64,000 bases of DNA from an uncultured Candidatus Peribacteria bacterium (GTDB lineage Bacteria > Patescibacteriota > Gracilibacteria > UBA4473). Made by a program: the position numbers and the translations under genes. Location: assembly GCA_964344775.1 (NCBI GenBank), contig CAYFOO010000001.1, positions 13,087 through 77,086 on the forward strand, given 5' to 3'. The notes under the pieces were generated by a model. It did not search any database, had not been told where the DNA came from, and saw only the letters and a list, made by a program, of their open reading frames with translations. Positions 48,285 to 63,965 of the stretch are shown piece after piece (the stretch's first letter is position 1; each line of letters begins with the position of its first letter).

Positions 48285-49682
48285 ATGCCAAAAAACATCA
48301 TCGACAAAATCTGGTCTTCGCATGTGGTGCATGCAGAAAAAGATGCTCCGGATATTCTTTTTATCGATCTACAACTTCTACACGAAGTGACCACTCCTCA
48401 AGCTTTTGATGTGTTGCGAAAACGAGGACTAAAATTCTTTGATCCAAAACGAAACTTTGCCACCATCGATCACTCCATCCCTACGGATGAAAATCGAAAA
48501 AACTATCCCGATGAAAAAGCTCGAGCACAGGTAGAACAACTGCGAAAAAATTGTGAAGAGTTTGGGATTCAGATTTTTGACACGGATTCTGGTCATCAGG
48601 GTATCGTACATGTGATCGGACCAGAGCTAGGACTCACACAGCCCGGAAGGACCATTGTCTGTGGAGATTCTCATACTTCAACCCATGGAGCCTTCGGAGC
48701 TCTGGCATTTGGGATTGGGACCACGCAGATCTCCCATGTGATGGCAACACAATCACTCCTGCTGGAGAAACCAAAAACGATGAAAGTGACCTTCATCGGA
48801 AATCCATCTGAACATTTCACGGCCAAAGATGCAATCCTTGCTTTGATCAACAAAATCGGCATCCAAGGTGGTACCGAGCACGCGATTGAATTCTGTGGGG
48901 AGTATATTCGGAGTCTCTCGATGGAAGGCCGAATGACGATTTGTAATATGGCGATTGAATGCGGGGCGAAATCTGGACTCATCTCTCCAGATGAAACCAC
49001 GTTTGACTATTTGAGAGAGCGAAAATTTGCCCCAAAAAACTTCGATGCGGCTGTTGAAAACTGGAAAAAACTCGCTTCTGATAAAAATGCTACGTACGAC
49101 ACGGAAGTAGAAATCAACCTGGAAGGAATGAGGCCCATCGTCACTTGGGGAACGAATCCAGAACAATCCGTACAAATCAATGAAAATCTCCCCATTCCAG
49201 CAGAAATGGAAGATTCGGCTAAAAAACTCGCGGCCGAAAAATCCTACGAATATGTACAGCTCAATCCGGGGGATAAAATTGCAGGAACCCCAATCGACTA
49301 TGTCTTCATCGGAAGCTGTACGAATGGAAGAATCGAAGATATGCGAGAAGCCGCAGAAATCCTAAAAAATCACAAAGTACATCAAAATGTAAAATGCTTC
49401 ATCGTGCCGGGATCAGAAGCAGTTCGAGCACAATGTGAAAAAGAAGGATTGAATAATATTTTTGACGAGTCAGGGGCAGACTTCCGGATGCCCGGGTGCT
49501 CGATGTGCCTCGCGATGAATGGCGACTTCGTCCCGACAGGAAAAAGATGTGCTTCTACCTCAAACCGAAACTTCGTCGGACGACAAGGAACCGGCAGCTT
49601 TACCCACCTCATGTCCCCAAAAATGGCCGCCATCTGTGCGGTGACGGGAAAGATTACCGACCCGGAAGAATTTTTAAATTAG
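48285..49682 (+). CDS. leuC: 3-isopropylmalate dehydratase large subunit
   Basis: Start moved to MPKNIIDKIW. Aconitase-family blocks: GDSHTSTHGAFG, CTNGRIED, PGCSMCLAMN and STSNRNFVGRQG. No leuD is adjacent. Confidence 0.92.
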   Translation: MPKNIIDKIWSSHVVHAEKDAPDILFIDLQLLHEVTTPQAFDVLRKRGLKFFDPKRNFATIDHSIPTDENRKNYPDEKARAQVEQLRKNCEEFGIQIFDTDSGHQGIVHVIGPELGLTQPGRTIVCGDSHTSTHGAFGALAFGIGTTQISHVMATQSLLLEKPKTMKVTFIGNPSEHFTAKDAILALINKIGIQGGTEHAIEFCGEYIRSLSMEGRMTICNMAIECGAKSGLISPDETTFDYLRERKFAPKNFDAAVENWKKLASDKNATYDTEVEINLEGMRPIVTWGTNPEQSVQINENLPIPAEMEDSAKKLAAEKSYEYVQLNPGDKIAGTPIDYVFIGSCTNGRIEDMREAAEILKNHKVHQNVKCFIVPGSEAVRAQCEKEGLNNIFDESGADFRMPGCSMCLAMNGDFVPTGKRCASTSNRNFVGRQGTGSFTHLMSPKMAAICAVTGKITDPEEFLN

Positions 49683-50119
49683 GTACTTCGGAAAATTCCC
49701 AATCCCAAAATTCCATCAGTTGTACTTTTTTTAGCCTGTTCCGCTTCTTTACTCACACCAAGCTGTTTTTTAGCACGTTCTTGTTCATTTGCTCCTAATT
49801 CTGCTTCGGCTCTCTCAATTGCCTCTGCTACTTCCGCATCTCCTTCTTTTGTAAGTTCGACAAATTCGTTTACATCTCTAATTGCTGCTTCTTGAGTTTC
49901 TTTTCGGTCCCGGGCATAAGCAACTAATGAGGGAGTTGCTCTATCAAAAGTATTCCCTTCCTTTCCTTTTTTAGAATCAACCTTTTTCACCATTTCGCCA
50001 TGGCTTTTTTGGGGCCTCATCATTGCCTCCAATTCTGCCCTTCCAATCCCAGCTTCCGCCCTTTTTTTATCTTTGTCTTTATTGGGAAATGCATCTGGTG
50101 AATCTTTACGAGCTACCAT
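49679..50119 (-). CDS. hypothetical protein
   Basis: 146-aa charged ORF. Its 3' end overlaps leuC by 4 nt (convergent). No domain recognised. Confidence 0.45.
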   Translation of the reverse strand: MVARKDSPDAFPNKDKDKKRAEAGIGRAELEAMMRPQKSHGEMVKKVDSKKGKEGNTFDRATPSLVAYARDRKETQEAAIRDVNEFVELTKEGDAEVAEAIERAEAELGANEQERAKKQLGVSKEAEQAKKSTTDGILGLGIFRST

Positions 50120-50125
50120 TTTAAA

Positions 50126-50446
50126 TTATTTATTAGTAGAAAAAACTGACTCAAATTCATTATCTATTTGTCGAAGTACATTTTTTTCGTTTATCCTTTG
50201 GATTTCTTCGTTATATTTATTTATAATTTTGGTTCTTTTATAGAGATGTTCATTATTTATATTAATCCTTTTAGTATTTAATTCATAAATTTTAACCTGC
50301 TCTTCCGCTAGAATATTATATAATTTTCGTTTTTTCGCTTCCGGCATTTCTCCTAAATGATTAATCAAATACTCCTTTTGCTCGGCATTTAAAGCCTGAG
50401 AAGCCTCGATCAAGTCCGGAAGGAAATTCACATCGTAGTTAGTCAT
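50126..50446 (-). CDS. hypothetical protein
   Basis: 106-aa helical ORF immediately upstream of 49679..50119. Confidence 0.45.
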   Translation of the reverse strand: MTNYDVNFLPDLIEASQALNAEQKEYLINHLGEMPEAKKRKLYNILAEEQVKIYELNTKRININNEHLYKRTKIINKYNEEIQRINEKNVLRQIDNEFESVFSTNK

Positions 50447-50526
50447 CTTTTTTTGAAAATTTATAATTCTTGTAATTATACCTGAAAAAAGCTAAAAAAA
50501 CAAGGTATTTAGCCTCAAAAACTAAG

Positions 50527-51747
50527 ATGCATCCTCTCCTTTCAAAATTACAAAATTATAATTGGCAAAAATTAGTGGGAAAATATAGTTCCCCACTAGT
50601 ACTCGTAGATGCGGAAATTATTCGAAAAAGAATACAAATCCTGAAGTCTAATTTCCCAAATTGTCATTTTTACTACGCATTAAAAGCAAACTTCAATCCG
50701 CATATTGTTAAAATCATCGTAAATGAAGGATTTGGTATCGATGCGGTTTCACCAAATGAAGTGGAGTTGGGATTAAAATTGGGAATTCCAGCTGAAAAAA
50801 TCGTGTACAACGAGAACAATATGACCGATGACGATATGAATTATTCCGTATCAAAAAAGATAAATCTTACGGTTGGCTCACTTTCTCGTCTGGAAAAATA
50901 TAGTCAGAAATACCCAAATACTGAAATCGGTATCCGAATAAATGGAGACATTGGTGCTGCCCTACACCAAAAAACCTACACCGCCGGCCCAAAATCAAAG
51001 TTTGGAATCCACTACAAACATCTCGAAAAAGCCCTCGAAATTGCAAAAAAAAATAACGTAAAAATCACAACGGCTCATCAACATATTGGATCTGGATGGT
51101 TGAATTCAGAACCTTTTTTTGAAGCAGTAGATATCCTCCTTGCACAAGCAAAAAAAATGCCGGACGTGCGGAAAATAGACTTTGGAGGTGGGTTTGGGAT
51201 TCCATACAAACCGAATCAATCGCATATCGACTATAAAATACTGGGACAAAAGTTTCAGGAAAAAATTGTGAATTTTACAAAAAAAACAGGACGTAATTTT
51301 AAAATTGCTTTTGAACCAGGACGATTTATCGTAGCTGAATCCTCTGTTCTTTTAGCCACTGTAAATACAAGGAAGAAAAATCCAGACGGAAAAATTTTCC
51401 TTGGAACAGATACGGGATTTAATCATCTCGTTCGTCCAGCGATGTACGATAGTTATCACCAGATTTTAAATCTTTCTCGGCTAAAAAATCCCAAAGAAAA
51501 AGTAAATATTTGCGGAAATCTGTGTGAATCGTCTGATTTTTTCGCCAAAGATCGAGAAATTGAAAAAGCTGAAGAGGGAGATATTTTAGCTATTTTTGAC
51601 GTGGGAGCCTACGGATTGGCTCAAGGCTCTCATTACAATCTTCGTGGATATCCAGCAGAAGTTCTGATCGATGGAAATACAGAAAAAATAATTCGAAAAC
51701 GAGAAAATTTTGAAGATTTGATGAAAACATTTGATTATCCGTTCTAA
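50527..51747 (+). CDS. lysA: diaminopimelate decarboxylase (fold-III PLP decarboxylase)
   Basis: FYYALKAN (PLP Lys), DFGGGFGIPY and CGNLCESSD. DAP specificity is inferred from family resemblance and the lysK neighbour. Confidence 0.75.
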   Translation: MHPLLSKLQNYNWQKLVGKYSSPLVLVDAEIIRKRIQILKSNFPNCHFYYALKANFNPHIVKIIVNEGFGIDAVSPNEVELGLKLGIPAEKIVYNENNMTDDDMNYSVSKKINLTVGSLSRLEKYSQKYPNTEIGIRINGDIGAALHQKTYTAGPKSKFGIHYKHLEKALEIAKKNNVKITTAHQHIGSGWLNSEPFFEAVDILLAQAKKMPDVRKIDFGGGFGIPYKPNQSHIDYKILGQKFQEKIVNFTKKTGRNFKIAFEPGRFIVAESSVLLATVNTRKKNPDGKIFLGTDTGFNHLVRPAMYDSYHQILNLSRLKNPKEKVNICGNLCESSDFFAKDREIEKAEEGDILAIFDVGAYGLAQGSHYNLRGYPAEVLIDGNTEKIIRKRENFEDLMKTFDYPF

Positions 51748-51786
51748 TTTGCATTTTATCAGCTTTTTTGCATACTTTCCTCCACA

Positions 51787-54114
51787 ATGTTTTGGGCTGA
51801 CCGCATCGCTGACGAAATTCTTGCCGCACATCCTGACCAGGAAGAATTTATCGTGCGTGACGAAAAAACACTCTCTGGACGAGTACATGTAGGATCCCTG
51901 CGAGGAGTTGTAATCCACGGCCTGATTGCTCAAGTACTGAATGAAAAAGGGAAAAAAGCTAAATTTATTTTTGAGTTTAACGACTTTGATCCCATGGACG
52001 GACTCCCAATCTACCTGGATGAAACAAAGTTCGCCCCAGAAATGGGAAAACCACTCAAAAATGTCCCCTCCCCTGATGCCAACCACAAAAACTACGCCGA
52101 ATACTTTGGAGATGAATTTTTGGGAGTAATTCAAGAGCTTGGCTTTGATCCAGAAATCCCTCGAGCATCTGGACTCTATGAAAGCGGACAAGTGAATAAT
52201 TGGATCCAACTAGCCCTGGAGAAAAAAGATGATATCCGAGAAATCTACCGAGAAGTATCTGGCTCTCAAAAAAGTCCACACTGGTCCCCCGTACAAGTAA
52301 TCTGTGAAAACTGTGGGCGTGTGGGAACTACGGATGTGAAAGATTTTGATGGGAAAGAGGTAACCTACACCTGCGAAAAACATAAAGTAAAATGGGCCGA
52401 AGGTTGTGGCCATGAAGGAAAAGTTTCTCCCTTCGATGGAAATGCCAAACTTCTCTGGAAAGTAGAATGGCCGGCTAAATGGGCAGCTTACAAAGTAGAT
52501 GTAGAAGGGTCTGGAAAAGACCACAATGCTTCCGGAGGAAGTCATGAGATCGGAGAACACATCTGTGAAAAAGTTTTTAACACTACTGTGCCCTTCAACA
52601 TCCCCTATGAATTCTTTTTAATTGGTGGAAAAAAAATGTCCTCTTCAAAAGGATCCGGAGCTACGGCTCGAGAGGTAGCGGATACCCTCCCGCCAGAATT
52701 GTTGAGATTTTTGATGATCCGGACAGAACCGAGAAAACCGATTGAATTTAATCCAGAAGGAGAAACCATTCCCCGACTTTTTGATGAGCACGATCGAGCC
52801 GCAAATGAATATTTTTTGGGTGAAAAAAGTACTTTTCCGGATCTGGGAAGATGTTTCTTTCTTTCTCAAATAGATCTGAATAAAAAGCCGGTAGAAAAAT
52901 ATCTGCCGAGATTTTCAAAGCTCGTTTTTGCGATCCAAATCCCTCGTCTGGATATCCAGAAAGAAGTTGCCGAATGGAAAGGATCACCACTTACAAAAGA
53001 TGACCTCGAAGAATTAGAACTAAGAATAAAATATGCCAAACGTTGGATCGAAGACTTCGCTCCAGAAAACTACCTCTTCAAAATCTCTGACGAAATACCT
53101 GAGAGAGCCGACGAATTAACCGATGCACAAAAAGACGTACTCAAAAAAATGGCCGAACAATTGGCTCGAGTCGAATGGGAAGGCGAAAATATCCATGGTG
53201 CACTACACGGAATAAAAGAAGAATCTGGACTCTCACCACGGGAGTTTTTTGCTACCATTTATTTACCAATTTTGGGACGAGATTCTGGTCCACAAGCTGG
53301 ATGGTTGATCTCTGCTCTAGAAAAAGAGTGGGTACTCAAAAGATTTGAAGAAGTGAGTAAAAAGAGTAAAAAATCAATACTTTCGTCCCTTGAAGAGTTA
53401 GCAGGAAAAACAAAAGATGAAAAAATATTCCATATTGCCCCCGCATTTTTTGAGAAATTCCCAGAAGCTAAATTGGCAATTATTACGGTCAAAAAAACAG
53501 ACAATTCTACAAAAAATCCCGATATAGAAAAATTCCTCCGTGAAACTGAAAAAGCCTTTTCTTTAGAGGGAGAAATTCCTACCCATCCACGAATAGAATG
53601 CTGGAGAGAGGCTTATAGATCTTTTGGGATGAAACCAAGTGAGTTTCGCTCTTCTATCGAAGGTCTAGTAAGAAGAGTAAAAGCAAACAAACCACTCCCA
53701 CTGATTAATCCTCTAGTTGATATTTATAATGCTATTTCAATTAAGCATCTCCTCCCAGCAGGAGGGGAAGATTTGGATAAAATTGAAGGAGCTCTACAAC
53801 TTAATTTTGCTGAGGGGACGGAAGAATTTTTTAGTATTGGAAGTGAAAAAAATGAGCCTCCTAAAAAAGGAGAACTGGTCTATCAAGATGATAAAAATAT
53901 AGTTTGCCGTTCGTGGAATTGGAGGGAAGCAGATAGGACAAAATTAACACCAAAAACAACAGAAGCAGTCTTAATTTTGGAAGCTTTGCCACCAACAAAA
54001 ACATCCGAGCTAGAATCTGCGGCAAAAGAGCTAGAAGAAAAAATAAATAAATTTTTAGGTGGAGAAATCAAAATAGAAATACTTTCTAATCAAAAAAATC
54101 ATTGCTACCTTTAA
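51787..54114 (+). CDS. lysK: class I lysyl-tRNA synthetase fused to a C-terminal B3/4-like domain
   Basis: The HIGH-like GRVHVGSLRG and the KMSKS-like KMSSSKG lie in the first ~520 aa. The last ~230 aa contain SSIEGLVRRV...LPLINPLVDIYNAISIKHLLPAGGEDLDKIEG, which resembles the PheRS-beta B3/4 family. Confidence 0.8.
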   Translation: MFWADRIADEILAAHPDQEEFIVRDEKTLSGRVHVGSLRGVVIHGLIAQVLNEKGKKAKFIFEFNDFDPMDGLPIYLDETKFAPEMGKPLKNVPSPDANHKNYAEYFGDEFLGVIQELGFDPEIPRASGLYESGQVNNWIQLALEKKDDIREIYREVSGSQKSPHWSPVQVICENCGRVGTTDVKDFDGKEVTYTCEKHKVKWAEGCGHEGKVSPFDGNAKLLWKVEWPAKWAAYKVDVEGSGKDHNASGGSHEIGEHICEKVFNTTVPFNIPYEFFLIGGKKMSSSKGSGATAREVADTLPPELLRFLMIRTEPRKPIEFNPEGETIPRLFDEHDRAANEYFLGEKSTFPDLGRCFFLSQIDLNKKPVEKYLPRFSKLVFAIQIPRLDIQKEVAEWKGSPLTKDDLEELELRIKYAKRWIEDFAPENYLFKISDEIPERADELTDAQKDVLKKMAEQLARVEWEGENIHGALHGIKEESGLSPREFFATIYLPILGRDSGPQAGWLISALEKEWVLKRFEEVSKKSKKSILSSLEELAGKTKDEKIFHIAPAFFEKFPEAKLAIITVKKTDNSTKNPDIEKFLRETEKAFSLEGEIPTHPRIECWREAYRSFGMKPSEFRSSIEGLVRRVKANKPLPLINPLVDIYNAISIKHLLPAGGEDLDKIEGALQLNFAEGTEEFFSIGSEKNEPPKKGELVYQDDKNIVCRSWNWREADRTKLTPKTTEAVLILEALPPTKTSELESAAKELEEKINKFLGGEIKIEILSNQKNHCYL

Positions 54115-54175
54115 AGAGAACAAAAAGAACCTCAAACTGTTTGTTCAAGGCTCTCTTTTGATGTGCAAAAATAAA

Positions 54176-54373
54176 TTACGCACCAGCTTCTTCCATCATT
54201 TCCCCTTCTAATTCCATTTCTACTTCGATCGCTTCTGCGTCTTCAGCAGGTGCAGCAGCTTCTTCTGCAGCAGGAACTTCAACAGCTGGAGCTTCAGGAG
54301 CAGGTTCTGTTGGTTTTTGTGGCATACATCCGACCAGGGCAAATGCAAGCACGAGAGCCATAATCTTTTTCAT
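54176..54373 (-). CDS. small acidic lipoprotein
   Basis: 65 aa. Signal peptide with lipobox LVGC, then a P/A/E-rich tail. Confidence 0.55.
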   Translation of the reverse strand: MKKIMALVLAFALVGCMPQKPTEPAPEAPAVEVPAAEEAAAPAEDAEAIEVEMELEGEMMEEAGA

Positions 54374-54638
54374 GATTTAGAGGGTTAGATAATACATTTT
54401 TTCTTATTTTCTCAAGATGGTTAGTTCTTTATCTCACCCCCTGAAAAATTAAGAAATACAAAGATTAGCCAAATTTTACTGATACAACTGGCTTCCGTCA
54501 AATTTTAAAAAATTGGCGAATCATACCAATTTCAACTAGGAAGTATTATATTTCCGTCTACGTAATTTTTAAAAACTAATTATACAAACTTCCCACTACG
54601 CTCTTCTTTCCTTTGTTTACCAGCTTCGCCCGACCTTC

Positions 54639-54656
54639 GTCCCGAGGACTCGGGAC
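54639..54656. repeat. GC hairpin GTCCCGAG-GA-CTCGGGAC
   Basis: Sibling of 13276..13295, with shared flank CCCGRCCTTC in the opposite orientation. Confidence 0.8.
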
Positions 54657-54712
54657 TTCGGTGGGGGGACCAGGACAGGTCGTCGGACAGATGGCGAGAT
54701 CGATTTTTTGAA

Positions 54713-55948
54713 TTATTCTTTGCACGAAACCAGGTTTGCTTGCCGAGCACAGACGATGTCTTTGTAGAGAAGCGTTTCTTCGAGTTGGGCATTGATCTCT
54801 AGGATAGTTTGAAAGGTGTATTCCAATTTTTTCGCAAAGCCGTCGGTTCTGATCCCAGAGATGTGTTTCGCTCGATCGATGAGGTAGTTTCGATCGTTTC
54901 TCCATTTTTGGTGCCGTGTTTCAAAGTGTCGTTCATGAGGCCGAGCTTGAGTCCATTCTTCGATAGTTCTGGTTTCTCCTGCGGTTTCCTTGACCTTGAT
55001 CCCGGCCATCAGCCATTTGATGGGATCGGACAAAAATTTTGTAGCTTTAAATTTTTCCCAAAATCGTTCTCGTTGGAGATAAAATTTTGGCAAAGGGAGG
55101 AGATCTTCGATCAAATAGTAAAAAGGATAAAAATCATCCGTGTTAATGGTTTTGTGCGATCGGGCGAAGGCTTTTTTGAATTCTTGCGATATTTTGAGCG
55201 GGAGAGGAAGAGGTTCGTCTGCGTGACCGTATTGGACGGAATAGTTTTCTGATCGAACATCTGCCGTGTCCTGTTTCTCCAGTAATTCCCGCGAATTTTT
55301 GAGGAGCGGAGGAATAATTTTATCTTTTCTTTGAATTTCTTCATCTTTGCAGATTCTTTGATTTTGTAGATTTAGCTCCAGGTAGAGTTTTTCGGCTAGT
55401 TCTTTGGCACTGGCCGAATTAAACACCACTGATTTTGAGGTCCGGAGTGGCTGGATAGCTGCTGGGAGAATGTTTATCAACATATCTTCATGAAAAGCAA
55501 AAACAGCCTCGGTTTTTTGCTCGAATTCATCAGAAAAGCAGGCTTCGTGGTCTTGCATGCTTGTTTTTCTTCGAAATTCATCAATCCGTGGAAGGACGTC
55601 CAGATATTTATTTAATGCTGCAGGAAATTCATCTGGAAACGCGGCAAAATATTTATCAATCGTTCGGAGTTTTTGAGAGAGGAGGTAGAATCTTTTGAAT
55701 CGAGGAGAGTATTCGATATCACTGATATCTTTTGTAAGTTCTGTGAAAATTGGAACGGGGACACTGGGACATCTGGCTATTTCTTTGGGCAGTTCCACTT
55801 CCTTCAGGTGTTGCAGCTGGAATTCTGCCTGTGGAGTCAGATCTTCCAGAGTTTTTGGTGGTATGCATTTGGGATTACCCACATTTTCCTCTTCTGCGAA
55901 GGTCAATGCTGGAGTAAAAAGAATGATAAAAATAATCAGTTTTTTCAT
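54713..55948 (-). CDS. secreted hypothetical protein (third gene of a three-gene operon)
   Basis: Signal peptide MKKLIIFIILFTPALTFA. 6 Cys. ATGA overlap with the upstream gene. Confidence 0.6.
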   Translation of the reverse strand: MKKLIIFIILFTPALTFAEEENVGNPKCIPPKTLEDLTPQAEFQLQHLKEVELPKEIARCPSVPVPIFTELTKDISDIEYSPRFKRFYLLSQKLRTIDKYFAAFPDEFPAALNKYLDVLPRIDEFRRKTSMQDHEACFSDEFEQKTEAVFAFHEDMLINILPAAIQPLRTSKSVVFNSASAKELAEKLYLELNLQNQRICKDEEIQRKDKIIPPLLKNSRELLEKQDTADVRSENYSVQYGHADEPLPLPLKISQEFKKAFARSHKTINTDDFYPFYYLIEDLLPLPKFYLQRERFWEKFKATKFLSDPIKWLMAGIKVKETAGETRTIEEWTQARPHERHFETRHQKWRNDRNYLIDRAKHISGIRTDGFAKKLEYTFQTILEINAQLEETLLYKDIVCARQANLVSCKE

Positions 55949-57237
55949 AATTTTTTTGGCTTGTGGGCTAGATCTTTAAAAATTTTCTTCAGCTTCACGA
56001 CCTGATCGTACCAGGCAAAGAAATCATCGTTCCAATAATCAATCACTCGGAGAATGCGGACAAAATACTGCTGTTCCGGTTCCATGGTGGCAGCTTTTTT
56101 GATCGCATCCAGGTGTTGTTCCCAATCTTCTGTTCGCATAATTGTACATTCTTCCATTAGTTCGTCACTGTATTTTTTTGTGAGGTTGTATTTTCCTTTT
56201 CTCGCTTCTTCCAGTCGATTGAGGCAGGAAGTTTCCAGGCGAATTCGATCTTCTAGTCCAGCGAACCTTTTTCCGATTAATTCCCGGTTATTTATTTCTA
56301 CTTCTAGATCAGCTTTTTGGATGGGAGCTTTCAGAATTTTCTGACTGTAGAGATCTCCAATATCCGGGAGGTAGTACCAGCCGGACTGCTGAAAAAGGCG
56401 GGTGTTGTTACATTCTGCCACTTGCGAGAGATCAGCGAGTTTATATTCAAGAACATTTTTCATATTGGCAAAATTTCCTGCAATGAATCCATCCTCTTCA
56501 GAATAATCATTTGGATTGGTGGTGAGCTGACTTTCTGTATTACAGTTGCCTTTGTAGCAGGGGAATTTTTCTTTGAATCCATCCATCCAGGTGGGCCAAT
56601 CTCCGGTTTCTATATCTTCCTCTTCATCCCTTTCTTCATCTTTATTTTCGGTATCCTCTTCTCCCTCATCCTCACCTATTCGAGAACGATATTTCTTCGA
56701 TTTTTCATACACAAATTCTGGTTTCGGTTGATCTTTTTTGTAGGCTTTTTCTCCGAAAATGAGTTCATCAATTTCATCTAGATCGTCGATCAGATCGTAG
56801 GGATATTGATCATCAGCTTTTCCCATTTTTCTGTCCGAGTGGATACTCATGTGATTCAATCGTTCTTTGAGATAATCTTCAAACCACAGCAGCTCCCGTT
56901 CAAATTTCATCACATCTTTTGCCCGAGCAGCCCATTCTTGTTGAGATTGTATGCTCCAATGAATTTGTTCAATTTCTTCTAATTTTTTTTCACCTTCATG
57001 ACTTTGTTCCCATCGTTCTAGTGTTTGGAGTTTTGGGCAGGAGATATTCTTAAAAGTATCTTCTTCTAGGGTGTCAGGGTTATCCCAATTGGCTTTTCGA
57101 TTTTGCACTCGCTTACAGACACTTTCTTCGTGTTCCTGAGTCATGGAATTTGTTTTTTCATAGATTCTTTTGTAGAGATCTTGAAAATCCTTGAGAGCGT
57201 TTGTTTCTACGGGAAAAATAAAAATTCCAATTATCAT
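55945..57237 (-). CDS. secreted hypothetical protein (second gene of operon)
   Basis: Start moved to MIIGIFIFPVETNA. The ORF-track N-terminus is translated from the (GAATTTT)4 array. It contains an acidic stretch and 7 Cys. Confidence 0.55.
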   Translation of the reverse strand: MIIGIFIFPVETNALKDFQDLYKRIYEKTNSMTQEHEESVCKRVQNRKANWDNPDTLEEDTFKNISCPKLQTLERWEQSHEGEKKLEEIEQIHWSIQSQQEWAARAKDVMKFERELLWFEDYLKERLNHMSIHSDRKMGKADDQYPYDLIDDLDEIDELIFGEKAYKKDQPKPEFVYEKSKKYRSRIGEDEGEEDTENKDEERDEEEDIETGDWPTWMDGFKEKFPCYKGNCNTESQLTTNPNDYSEEDGFIAGNFANMKNVLEYKLADLSQVAECNNTRLFQQSGWYYLPDIGDLYSQKILKAPIQKADLEVEINNRELIGKRFAGLEDRIRLETSCLNRLEEARKGKYNLTKKYSDELMEECTIMRTEDWEQHLDAIKKAATMEPEQQYFVRILRVIDYWNDDFFAWYDQVVKLKKIFKDLAHKPKKL

Positions 57238-61704: not shown

Positions 61705-61719
61705 TTTCATCAAAAAAAC

Positions 61720-62364
61720 ATGGGAAAAAAAGTTAGTCCGATATCTCTCCGAATAGGAATCACCCGAACTTGGGATTCTCTCTGGTACGATCGAAAGAAT
61801 TTTGCTCAAAAGTTTCTCCAGGACATCGCTATTCGGAAGTTTCTCAAAGAAAAAGGCAAGGAAGCGGGTATCGCAAAAATAGAAATTCACAGACATCCAG
61901 GAAAAACAGCGATCATCGTCCACTGCGGAAAACCGGGAATTATCATTGGTCGAAGCGGTGAAAATGTAGAATTACTTACCAAAGAATTGCGATCAAAGTT
62001 CGGAGAAGCGTTTGAACTTTCTATTCAAGAAATCCGAAAACCGGATGGGAATGCAGAGCTTGTAGCGGCTTCTGTGGCAGATCAAATCTCTCGAAGGTTC
62101 CCATACCGTCGGGTAGCAAAAATGGCAATAGATCGAGCAAAGGAATCTGGAGCAAAAGGAATTAAAATCACCGTGAGTGGGCGTCTCAATGGAGTGGATA
62201 TTGCCCGAAGAGAAAGTTATGCCTTTGGAACCGTACCGCTTCATACTTTACGGGCAAACATTGATTATGCCACCGCTCGAGCAGAAACTACTTATGGAAC
62301 TATTGGGGTGAAGGTATGGATTTATCAGGGATTGGTTTTTAAAAACGAAAAATTGAACGGTTAA
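61720..62364 (+). CDS. rpsC: 30S ribosomal protein S3
   Basis: MGKKVSPISLRIGI..., a KH domain, and GRLNGVDIARRE. No L16 follows. Confidence 0.95.
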   Translation: MGKKVSPISLRIGITRTWDSLWYDRKNFAQKFLQDIAIRKFLKEKGKEAGIAKIEIHRHPGKTAIIVHCGKPGIIIGRSGENVELLTKELRSKFGEAFELSIQEIRKPDGNAELVAASVADQISRRFPYRRVAKMAIDRAKESGAKGIKITVSGRLNGVDIARRESYAFGTVPLHTLRANIDYATARAETTYGTIGVKVWIYQGLVFKNEKLNG

Positions 62365-62448
62365 TCTTTTTTGAAACGAAGAAATAGTGGGTATGCCAAA
62401 AATGCTCCAGCCTTTTTTGTTTTTTTGCTAAAAAACGCAAGGGGATAG

Positions 62449-62477
62449 TTGCTTTTTTGTTCTATTTATGGTATAAT
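62449..62477 (+). promoter_or_regulatory. sigma70-like promoter TTGCTT-17-TATAAT
   Basis: Counted spacing is 17 nt, 25 nt before the ATG at 62502. Confidence 0.5.
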
Positions 62478-62501
62478 GATTAGATAGGTAGTATCTAAAA
62501 A

Positions 62502-63965
62502 ATGCCCACTCCCTTCACTGGTGACGAAAATGAAGAAACTCAAAAAGGTTCTCAAAACCTCAATGAAGTTCTAAAAAATGATACCCATTTGCAATTGGAG
62601 GCTTTTGAAAGTGGGATGAAAGACTCGGAAAGAAAAACAGCACACCAAGAAAATCGAGAAAAGCGGGAAAGTTTGGCTAGGCTTGTTGAAGGGCATAACA
62701 CTTCTTCTGATTGGGAAAAAATTGATGGTGGTGCAGGAGATAATGAATTAGTTGGAGGAGCAGAAAATGATCGAGCTGAAACTGGAGATTTTGAGAATAT
62801 AAATAAAATAATCAGAGGGGACAGTCCTCAAGAAGGAGGTTGGGAAACAATTGTAGATACTCCACCCCGTGGAGTACGAATTGAATTTGATGAAAATAAC
62901 CCACAAGCTGAAAATATTCTTACTTACACTCAAAAAAGAGTAGAAGAAATTAATCACACCTGGCAATACGGTACATTTGATGAAAAATATCAAATTATAT
63001 TGACCGAAGGTCAAAGATTAGAAAATAAAAAAATTGAAATTGAAACAAGGAAAATAGACCAAAAAAGTAAGCGAAGGAAGGAAACATTAGATAGAAGGAT
63101 ACAAGAGATAAAAAATGATGAAAACAGATGGGATGCAACAAAATGGATTTTAACTACTTGGGAAACACAAGCATTTAACTGGAAAGAAAGCGATCTTATC
63201 GGAGCAGAAAACGCAGAAAAAGCACAATTAATCGCTAGTATAAGAAATGACAGCCATAGACAAAGGGCATGGGAAGCCGAGATACTTCGCAACAGACCTC
63301 CAGAAGAAGCTCATCGACTCATCCTGGCACGGAACCAATGGGTAATCAACGAAGTGGAAAGACATCACCAAGCTTACGTCCAGATTCAAATCAGAATAGC
63401 CAGAAGGGAAGAAGAAAAAAAAGAAACTACCGCACAAACCGCCGCAGATACTACAACTACAATTTCTCCAGATGAAAAAGCTGAAGAAAACACAAAGGAA
63501 AAAGAAGTACTCCCAGAAGAAATTGCAGAATTGCATCAAAAACAAAGAAATAGGGAGGGCACAGACGTACTTCTCGAGTCAAAACACCTCTGTCCTGGCA
63601 CACAAAGTATTAGACCTATCGGCGGGCAGCATTTTTATCGATCAAAAAATCTCTTTGAGTACCCAAATAACCCAAGTCAAACCTGTGCCGTAATATACAC
63701 TAGCACCACCACAGAAACCATCCCTATCGTCTGCTATCGAAAAAATGGCAGATGGATTCCCTCAAAAGGATTTAAAAATGCGGAAAAATACAATTGCTTC
63801 GAAAAAAATGAAAAAGGATTCCAATTGAAAATTGAAATTGCTGATCTACTAGAAAAAGACTACCTCCTCGGAGGAAGTGGAAACATCGTTTCTTCTGAAA
63901 TAGCACAACAAGAGCTGCAAGGTCTGACAACCCGACACAAACTGTACAAACAGTTTTACGCTTAA
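62502..63965 (+). CDS. hypothetical protein
   Basis: 487-aa ORF behind a TTGCTT-17-TATAAT promoter. It has a charged helical middle and a Cys-containing C-terminus. No signal peptide. Confidence 0.55.
   Translation: MPTPFTGDENEETQKGSQNLNEVLKNDTHLQLEAFESGMKDSERKTAHQENREKRESLARLVEGHNTSSDWEKIDGGAGDNELVGGAENDRAETGDFENINKIIRGDSPQEGGWETIVDTPPRGVRIEFDENNPQAENILTYTQKRVEEINHTWQYGTFDEKYQIILTEGQRLENKKIEIETRKIDQKSKRRKETLDRRIQEIKNDENRWDATKWILTTWETQAFNWKESDLIGAENAEKAQLIASIRNDSHRQRAWEAEILRNRPPEEAHRLILARNQWVINEVERHHQAYVQIQIRIARREEEKKETTAQTAADTTTTISPDEKAEENTKEKEVLPEEIAELHQKQRNREGTDVLLESKHLCPGTQSIRPIGGQHFYRSKNLFEYPNNPSQTCAVIYTSTTTETIPIVCYRKNGRWIPSKGFKNAEKYNCFEKNEKGFQLKIEIADLLEKDYLLGGSGNIVSSEIAQQELQGLTTRHKLYKQFYA

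Follow-up and report, generated by a model that had tools for sequence, protein, structure and literature searches.

A class I lysyl-tRNA synthetase carrying a CtdA-type deacylase domain in a Peribacteria-like bacterium

The stretch analysed here (the window) comprises 64,000 nucleotides of contig CAYFOO010000001.1 from a tiny, uncultured, Peribacteria-like bacterium of the Candidate Phyla Radiation (CPR), whose genome (G000) is 94% complete. Two plus-strand open reading frames (ORFs) fill its positions 50527-54114, namely 50527-51747 (406 aa), or lysA, and 51787-54114 (775 aa), which encodes a class I lysyl-tRNA synthetase (LysRS) that continues through a linker into a deacylase domain of the CtdA type. 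Descriptions of CtdA have so far been confined to free-standing proteins that guard tRNA-Arg against canavanine, and LysRS is a textbook synthetase without a post-transfer editing domain. Here, a LysRS has probably gained such a proofreading domain. The 775-aa ORF is a single uninterrupted gene and the fusion is genuine; its product may edit, after transfer, a basic analogue of lysine or arginine.

The fusion gene and its two halves

An earlier note on this DNA had read the 775-aa ORF as a complete class I LysRS in about the first 520 aa, joined by a Lys-rich linker to a domain of the B3/4 fold, and profile searches of the two halves bear this out. PF01921 (tRNA-synt_1f) matches aa 2-350 (E 3.3e-95) and PF03483 (B3_4) matches aa 606-740 (E 6.7e-28; 97.9 bits against a cut-off of 29.3). 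The model TIGR00467 (lysS_arch), which has 515 positions, extends over aa 1-521 with 360 bits against a cut-off of 148, and the anticodon-binding domain PF19269 matches aa 440-522. The motifs GRVHVGSLRG, KMSSSKG and VCRSWNWREADRTKLT quoted in that note are all present in the protein. The class I signatures lie at aa 34-37 (HVGS) and aa 283-289 (KMSSSKG), and H34, G36, K283, M284, S287, K288 and G289 are invariant across 59 aligned homologues.

The sequence contains no stop or frame change at the junction of LysRS and B3/4, and exactly the same 775-aa protein was called on five contigs, including contigs of a MEGAHIT assembly and of a Logan assembly of run ERR2281802. The protein was also modelled with AlphaFold2 from 59 homologues; the mean predicted local distance difference test (pLDDT) score is 90.7, and both halves are confident. 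The B3/4 domain reaches pLDDT values of 85-97 and is confident over aa 545-768, and values below 50 occur only at aa 530-544 and 769-775. Since unfused LysRS homologues terminate at about aa 526 and the linker has a pLDDT below 50, aa 521-544 form a true tether. An assembly or sequencing artefact, by which an indel in the A-rich junction merged an adjacent lysS and a free-standing B3/4 gene, is extremely unlikely. Short A runs are indeed present in the junction, but the same ORF occurs in at least two different assemblies, and the linker runs in frame from a normal LysRS end to a normal CtdA N-terminus with no alternative-frame remnants. In addition, the LysRS-B3/4 architecture is found in dozens of independent metagenome-assembled genomes.

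The C-terminal domain had further been likened to the editing module of the beta subunit of phenylalanyl-tRNA synthetase (PheRS). The B3/4 fold stands, whereas the PheRS-beta-like assignment does not. The only B3/4 matches in a sequence search of PDB chains were to CtdA (9f7e, E 6e-31; 9mkl, E 3e-30), and aa 600-759 align with both CtdA structures when the whole protein is searched. No PheRS beta chain was found among the PDB chains, whether the whole protein (E <= 0.001) or the C-terminal piece (E <= 1) was searched. A PheRS-beta-type editing domain was rejected on this ground, as well as because the domain carries a CtdA pocket and is not situated within PheT; the true pheT of the genome lies on another contig (C52).

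The pocket was examined with the residue list of S. enterica CtdA (PMC12449066), transferred through the alignment of the PDB search and checked by script. Residues S80, L84, N105, V115, G116 and E118 of CtdA correspond to S623, L627, N648, A658, G659 and E661 of the window protein, and C166, N170, W171, R172, Q173 and I189 correspond to C707, N711, W712, R713, E714 and I730. Ten of the 12 residues are identical, the differences being A658 for V115 and E714 for Q173. The residues by which a CtdA-1 pocket is recognized (N105, G116, E118, C166, Q173 or E, and I189) are all represented, by N648, G659, E661, C707, E714 and I730. In S. enterica CtdA, N105A, G116H or G116W, Q173G and C166G each abolish activity (PMC12449066). 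Cys166 marks clade CtdA-1 as against CtdA-2; Ser or Ala is tolerated at this position and Gly is inactivating (PMC12449066). Glu in place of Q173 is the variant present in the active CtdA of C. perfringens, which clears canavanyl-tRNA-Arg (PMC12449066).

In a search of short proteins, the window domain proved 44-51% identical to free-standing B3/4 proteins, about 233 aa in length, of Patescibacteria, Clostridia and Nanoarchaeia. The best 120 free-standing matches have the pocket signature S-L-N-[ACV]-G-E-C-N-W-[RK]-E-[VCI]; N, G, E, C, N, W and E occupy seven of the pocket positions in all 120, and the other five positions vary narrowly. Based on this signature and on the identity shared with free-standing members, the appended module is an ordinary CtdA-1-type enzyme and seems to be catalytically intact.

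No LysRS other than the fusion protein was detected in the genome, which contains a single PF01921 gene. The best match to a class II LysRS scored 95 bits, so far below the cut-off of 428 that it represents another class II enzyme and not LysRS. The arginyl-tRNA synthetase (ArgRS) of this genome is plain (a 563-aa open frame), and no CtdA-like gene was found in the genome besides the fusion domain. Among 39 tRNAs predicted by aragorn, the only tRNA-Lys is tRNA-Lys(CUU); no tRNA-Lys(UUU) is present in the assembly.

Relatives of the domain and origin of the fusion

An exhaustive HMMER search with the domain over 1.84 billion cluster representatives yielded 3435 relatives at E <= 0.001, of which 253 reach E <= 1e-30. 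Of the best 150 representatives, 111 have no more than 300 aa and count as free-standing, and 29 exceed 590 aa. The 39 proteins above 300 aa comprise 22 ArgRS, seven LysRS, two tyrosyl-tRNA synthetases (TyrRS) and eight unassigned proteins, seven of which have 310-433 aa. In the closest relatives of fusion size (40-50% identity), the domain is located at the N-terminus of ArgRS in Gottesman-, Shapiro- and Collierbacteria, at either end of class II LysRS (including that of Diapherotrites) or on archaeal-type class I LysRS.

The distribution of the fusion was surveyed in 401 genomes sampled evenly across the phylum. A B3/4 relative is carried by 23 of these genomes, nearly always as one copy per genome. 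Typed by Pfam, three of the 21 matching proteins are free-standing and 18 are fused to a synthetase. Counted by genome, the Pfam partners are ArgRS (six), class II LysRS (four, one with an extra HD domain), class I LysRS (five, the window genome among them), TyrRS (three, one with an extra YbaK-type editing domain), methionyl-tRNA synthetase (MetRS; two) and prolyl-tRNA synthetase (ProRS; one). ArgRS-fused and LysRS-fused copies occur in six and nine genomes, respectively, a sample too small to judge their co-occurrence. The subfamily to which the window domain belongs (clade B) has the domain on ArgRS (42 rows) and on LysRS of both classes, at either end (34 rows), and three TyrRS fusions form a sister group inside the same major clade. 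Alignment of ArgRS-fused with LysRS-fused relatives shows 41 columns with conservation of 80% or more.

In a tree of 126 class I LysRS cores, the window core groups with three unfused proteins of 526 aa, to which it is 69-72% identical (support of 96 in the Shimodaira-Hasegawa-like approximate likelihood-ratio test, SH-aLRT). This group nests in a clade of 60 rows (SH-aLRT 99), of which 52 are unfused and seven are extended by HD or tRNA_bind; no member except the window protein bears B3/4. Other class I LysRS-B3/4 proteins, from Peregrinibacteria, Peribacteria and Gracilibacteria, have cores that are 54-58% identical to the window core. The B3/4 domains of other bacterial-type class I LysRS fusions are 22-30% identical to the window domain, as against 40-48% for the ArgRS-fused and class II LysRS-fused domains of clade B. 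The pockets of those other class I LysRS fusions read G-F-A-N-[HFY]-x-D, as against G-E-C-N-W-R-E in the window protein. A tree of B3/4 domains separates the two clades, A and B (SH-aLRT 97), and places the window domain near the base of its own.

The fusion thus arose independently of the other class I LysRS fusions. The core tree and the pocket signatures carry most of the weight for independence, since the B3/4 domain tree alone does not settle the origin. Overall, the CtdA module has been captured repeatedly by LysRS of both classes and by ArgRS, and its capture in the window genome is both independent and recent. That LysRS acquired the domain more than once independently points to a functional connection with tRNA-Lys.

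Several other modular synthetases were encountered. Six Patescibacteria class I LysRS of 736-742 aa (P0087, P0094, P0112, P0113, P0123 and P0126) bear a C-terminal HD phosphohydrolase domain instead of B3/4, and a class II LysRS (L031:609-3467, genome G134) bears both B3/4 and HD. The HD module may be connected with dinucleotide polyphosphates made by LysRS, such as Ap4A, an obvious candidate. Two sister class I LysRS, P0080 (659 aa) and P0194 (696 aa), have a C-terminal tRNA_bind domain (PF01588) of the EMAP/Trbp111 type. Together, the HD, tRNA_bind and B3/4 extensions indicate that this LysRS clade has gained at least three different C-terminal modules. P0002, of 1021 aa, is a triple fusion in which an archaeal-type class I LysRS carries two distinct editing modules, one a CtdA-type B3/4 domain and the other an AlaX-like domain (tRNA_SAD). 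Also present are a TyrRS with a YbaK-type tRNA_edit domain and B3/4, a ProRS with N-terminal B3/4 and a MetRS with C-terminal B3/4; the loci of these TyrRS, ProRS and MetRS fusions are L041:1666-3924 (G156), L040:2726-4864 (G090), L038:2550-4925 (G380) and L010 (G021), and their pockets differ from the CtdA-1 signature. In P0025 (427 aa, on a 2.8-kb contig), B3/4 is followed by a GatA-like amidase and is near-identical to that of the ArgRS fusions P0003 and P0011; this may be a chimeric or truncated contig and not a real architecture.

Proposed role of the deacylase domain

We infer from the conserved pocket and the choice of partners that the domain is catalytically active and probably acts on tRNA-Lys in cis, not on tRNA-Arg in trans. 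Action on tRNA-Lys is favoured because the partners of the subfamily are synthetases for both basic amino acids and not random housekeeping proteins. In the proposed mechanism, the LysRS body would charge tRNA-Lys, and the flexible tether of about 25 residues would allow the linked deacylase to receive the aminoacylated 3' end. Were the attached amino acid a non-cognate basic analogue (canavanine-like, or another look-alike of lysine or arginine), its ester bond would be hydrolysed by the deacylase through a pocket of Asn648, Gly659, Cys707 and Glu714, as inherited unchanged from free-standing CtdA, and Lys-tRNA-Lys would be spared. The net effect would be the addition of post-transfer editing to a synthetase that normally has none. 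On present sequence evidence, the chances that the LysRS-CtdA fusion performs such tethered editing are about even.

Several points weigh against this proposal. The only characterised substrate of the family is canavanyl-tRNA-Arg, and a member of the family would be expected to spare Arg-tRNA-Arg. The pocket is the same in ArgRS-fused, LysRS-fused and free-standing domains, and therefore gives no pointer to a lysine-specific non-cognate substrate. A tendency to differ is seen at position 626 alone, which is Ala in ArgRS fusions, Asn in LysRS fusions and Gly here. The AlphaFold2 model, with a predicted template modelling score of 0.67, provides no reliable inter-domain geometry. A second LysRS is conceivable, the genome being 94% complete. 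With regard to origin, the approximately unbiased test did not reject the window domain as sister to clade A (p 0.37), and it only marginally rejected a position of the window domain nested among other LysRS-fused domains (p 0.034; this group was chosen post hoc). Further, we know of no report of a LysRS charging canavanine.

The domain might instead work as a canavanyl-tRNA-Arg deacylase in trans, with LysRS as a stable, constitutive carrier or a partner in a synthetase assembly, and with tRNA-Lys not being a substrate. This is rather unlikely, but it is the main rival, and several observations favour it: the pocket is identical to those of free-standing CtdA-1 proteins and ArgRS-fused domains, its Glu at the position of Q173 is that of the C. 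perfringens enzyme active on canavanyl-tRNA-Arg, the genome combines a plain ArgRS with the absence of any other CtdA-like gene, and most genomes of the phylum sample that carry the domain have a single copy, whatever its partner. However, a mere carrier would be expected to be random, and the partners of the subfamily are ArgRS and LysRS, the latter of both classes, with the domain at both termini and through several independent events. The scarcity of free-standing copies in the 401-genome sample (3/21, with the other 18 on synthetases) also speaks against action in trans.

Two further explanations are less likely than either tethered editing or action in trans, owing to the conserved, side-chain-shaped pocket. 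It is quite improbable that the B3/4 domain has lost its hydrolytic activity and acts as an additional tRNA-binding or chaperone module, in the manner of tRNA_bind (EMAP/Trbp111-type) on other synthetases. The B3/4 fold does bind tRNA ends, and sister class I LysRS in the same clade carry C-terminal tRNA_bind (P0080; PF01588, E 1e-28), but every residue that mutagenesis found necessary for CtdA activity is retained, the pocket signature is conserved as in free-standing enzymes, and Asn648, Gly659, Cys707 and Glu714 would be superfluous for pure binding. There is likewise a slim chance that the domain is a general deacylase of broad or other specificity, for example towards D-aminoacyl-tRNA, which offsets missing stand-alone proofreading in a reduced genome. 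DTD (PF02580) was not found in the genome, which is weak evidence since the control search was positive in only eight of 14 reference genomes, and the partners of superfamily B3/4 domains across the phylum range over ArgRS, class I LysRS, class II LysRS, TyrRS, MetRS, ProRS and an amidase. However, the pockets of the TyrRS, MetRS and ProRS fusions are of other kinds, and these fusions occupy long branches of their own. The window pocket is the narrow, side-chain-specific pocket of CtdA-1. This pocket is lined by two Glu, which suggests a basic side chain as its target rather than the sensing of chirality.

If the favoured reading, tethered editing on tRNA-Lys, is extended beyond this one protein, CtdA-type deacylases might also form an unrecognised post-transfer editing system for tRNA-Lys, in addition to guarding tRNA-Arg against canavanine; this can be suggested only tentatively. 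It would imply that both LysRS classes, which are unrelated and have long been regarded as having no need of such an editing domain, mischarge a natural basic analogue so often in the habitats of CPR bacteria and DPANN archaea that a proofreading module was captured on repeated occasions. Among class I LysRS of the Peribacteria type alone there have been at least two such captures, with two pocket types. Under this reading, thousands of free-standing CtdA proteins of the Glu173 type may serve tRNA-Lys too. The fusion provides a natural 'Rosetta-stone' link, by which it becomes testable which basic analogue threatens tRNA-Lys and whether the CtdA family proofreads it.

Genomic setting and comparison with known systems

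A class II LysRS is found in 39 of 40 relatives, including G001 of the same genus, and among the genomes compared only the window genome and G033 have class I without class II LysRS. G001 has the same flanks as the window, C17:12743-14128 matching window 48292-49677 and C17:15601-16993 matching 54707-56016. These are a leuC-like gene on the left (79% protein identity to G001) and a secreted-protein operon on the right (55% for the downstream secreted protein). The interval between these flanks measures 5.03 kb in the window and 1.47 kb in G001, where it contains two unrelated ORFs that belong to no Pfam family. Small ORFs without a Pfam family are present in both versions of the slot (window 49679-50446, minus strand; G001:C17:14187-15597), and no leuD-like gene follows the leuC-like gene in the window or in G001. 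The GC content is 0.33-0.43 over the cassette and about 0.40 in the flanks, which is uninformative on transfer. Overall, lysA and lysS look like one horizontally acquired cassette and not a conserved operon, and most likely arrived, or were retained, together as a pair for lysine supply and lysine charging.

The class II lysS of G001 adjoins rpsC, as does lysS in the genomes encoding the closest unfused class I LysRS. In the window genome, rpsC is followed by a 488-aa ORF without a Pfam match and then by the contig end. In relatives, lysS is convergent to rpsC, whether it is of class II (G001:C46:859-3476) or class I (the genomes of P0076 and P0078; L043, L046); the corresponding window region is 61705-63962. 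This shared position beside rpsC for both LysRS classes suggests in-place replacement of one class by the other. Such ultra-small genomes would seem to rebuild translation quality control both by swapping a whole synthetase (class II to class I) and by adding editing modules.

The gene upstream of the fusion is lysA at equivalog level (TIGR01048, 360 bits against a cut-off of 298). Its product is 34% identical to that of G001 lysA, which is located elsewhere in G001, and at most 45% identical to that of any of the 40 relatives. dapA, dapB and dapF were not found in the genome, and without them lysA can convert only scavenged diaminopimelate (DAP) to lysine. It looks like an orphan last step by which DAP is salvaged, with peptidoglycan fragments of other cells as a possible source. 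The earlier note had correctly placed the start of lysS 39 nt after lysA, and the absence of a terminator-like site from this gap makes co-transcription plausible. The coupling of lysine synthesis to lysine charging that it had drawn from this arrangement does not hold up. The adjacency of lysA and lysS was not seen in the closest LysRS relatives, and only one of 80 related class I LysRS loci has a related decarboxylase nearby (26% identity; flanks of up to 3 kb on each side). Coupling through an operon was rejected on these grounds, together with the incomplete DAP pathway. A hairpin of 16 pairs at 54122-54158, 8 nt past the lysS stop, was scored as a minus-strand terminator-like site and may terminate transcription from both sides. 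No Rfam family matched in 49000-55000, so that no lysine riboswitch, guanidine riboswitch or T-box is seen there. The features of the locus are listed in Table 1.

Table 1. Coordinates of the lysA-lysS locus and its parts in the window
Feature	Position	Strand	Basis or remark
lysA, diaminopimelate decarboxylase (406 aa)	50527..51747	+	TIGR01048, PF02784 and PF00278 matches
lysA-lysS spacer, 39 nt	51748..51786	+	No plus-strand terminator-like site; no Shine-Dalgarno-like motif
Fusion gene, 775 aa and stop: class I LysRS, linker, CtdA-type deacylase domain	51787..54114	+	
Class I LysRS body, aa 1-520: Rossmann catalytic domain with HVGS and KMSSS, helical anticodon-binding domain	51787..53346	+	
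Lys-rich flexible linker, aa 521-544, EVSKKSKKSILSSLEELAGKTKDEK	53347..53418	+	
Complete CtdA-type B3/4 deacylase domain, aa 545-775	53419..54111	+	
Pfam B3_4 core, aa 606-740	53602-54006	+	PF03483
Codon span of predicted aminoacyl pocket, S623 to I730	53653..53976	+	Mapped to S. enterica CtdA
Variable slot: two small minus-strand ORFs, lysA, lysS fusion	49678..54706	.	Conserved flanks, comparison with same-genus G001

The novelty claimed for the fusion by the earlier note stands with respect to the literature, in which no description of LysRS, ArgRS or any other synthetase fused to CtdA or B3/4 was found. Both CtdA papers and a related preprint mention neither fusions nor lysine, and the text of the CtdA survey mentions neither Patescibacteria nor any fusion. 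However, such proteins have already been deposited in public databases as plain 'lysine--tRNA ligase'. The present locus adds a fusion that arose independently, a second type of pocket on the same scaffold of LysRS, a switch of LysRS class within a genus and the comparison with an empty site.

Among known systems, the class I LysRS of Pyrococcus horikoshii (1irx) aligns to aa 2-520 of the window protein (E 1e-74) with the same catalytic motifs, but has 523 aa, without an appended domain, and ends where the window linker starts. CtdA itself (PDB 9f7e of P. canavaninivorans and 9mkl of S. enterica; PMC10018355, PMC12449066) resembles the window domain in its size of about 230 aa. It differs in being free-standing, whereas the window domain is covalently attached to a class I LysRS, in a CPR host and at a locus without a guanidine riboswitch. 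The PheRS beta editing domain, which hydrolyses Tyr- and m-Tyr-tRNA-Phe, has PF03483, the fold class and the catalytic Asn in common with the window domain and is likewise an editing module within a synthetase polypeptide. Its pocket residues include His265, Gly318 and Glu334 (E. coli numbering). Of these, two positions were mapped via CtdA, and the window protein has Gly659 at that of His265 and Glu714 at that of Gly318, which is the CtdA pattern.

The ArgRS-CtdA and class II LysRS-CtdA fusions of Microgenomates (Gottesman-, Shapiro- and Collierbacteria) and of DPANN archaea belong to the same subfamily as the window domain and share its pocket signature. They differ in the synthetase partner and in the often N-terminal position of the domain, and none has a Peribacteria-type class I LysRS core. 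The same architecture is shared by the 769-aa 'Lysine-tRNA ligase' of Peregrinibacteria GW2011_GWA2_47_7 (P0167) and its kin, which have 762-793 aa and a core of the same bacterial type. Their B3/4 domain is of another clade, with 50-107 bits to the window domain, and in their pockets E118 is replaced by F, C166 by A, W171 by H, F or Y and Q173 by D.

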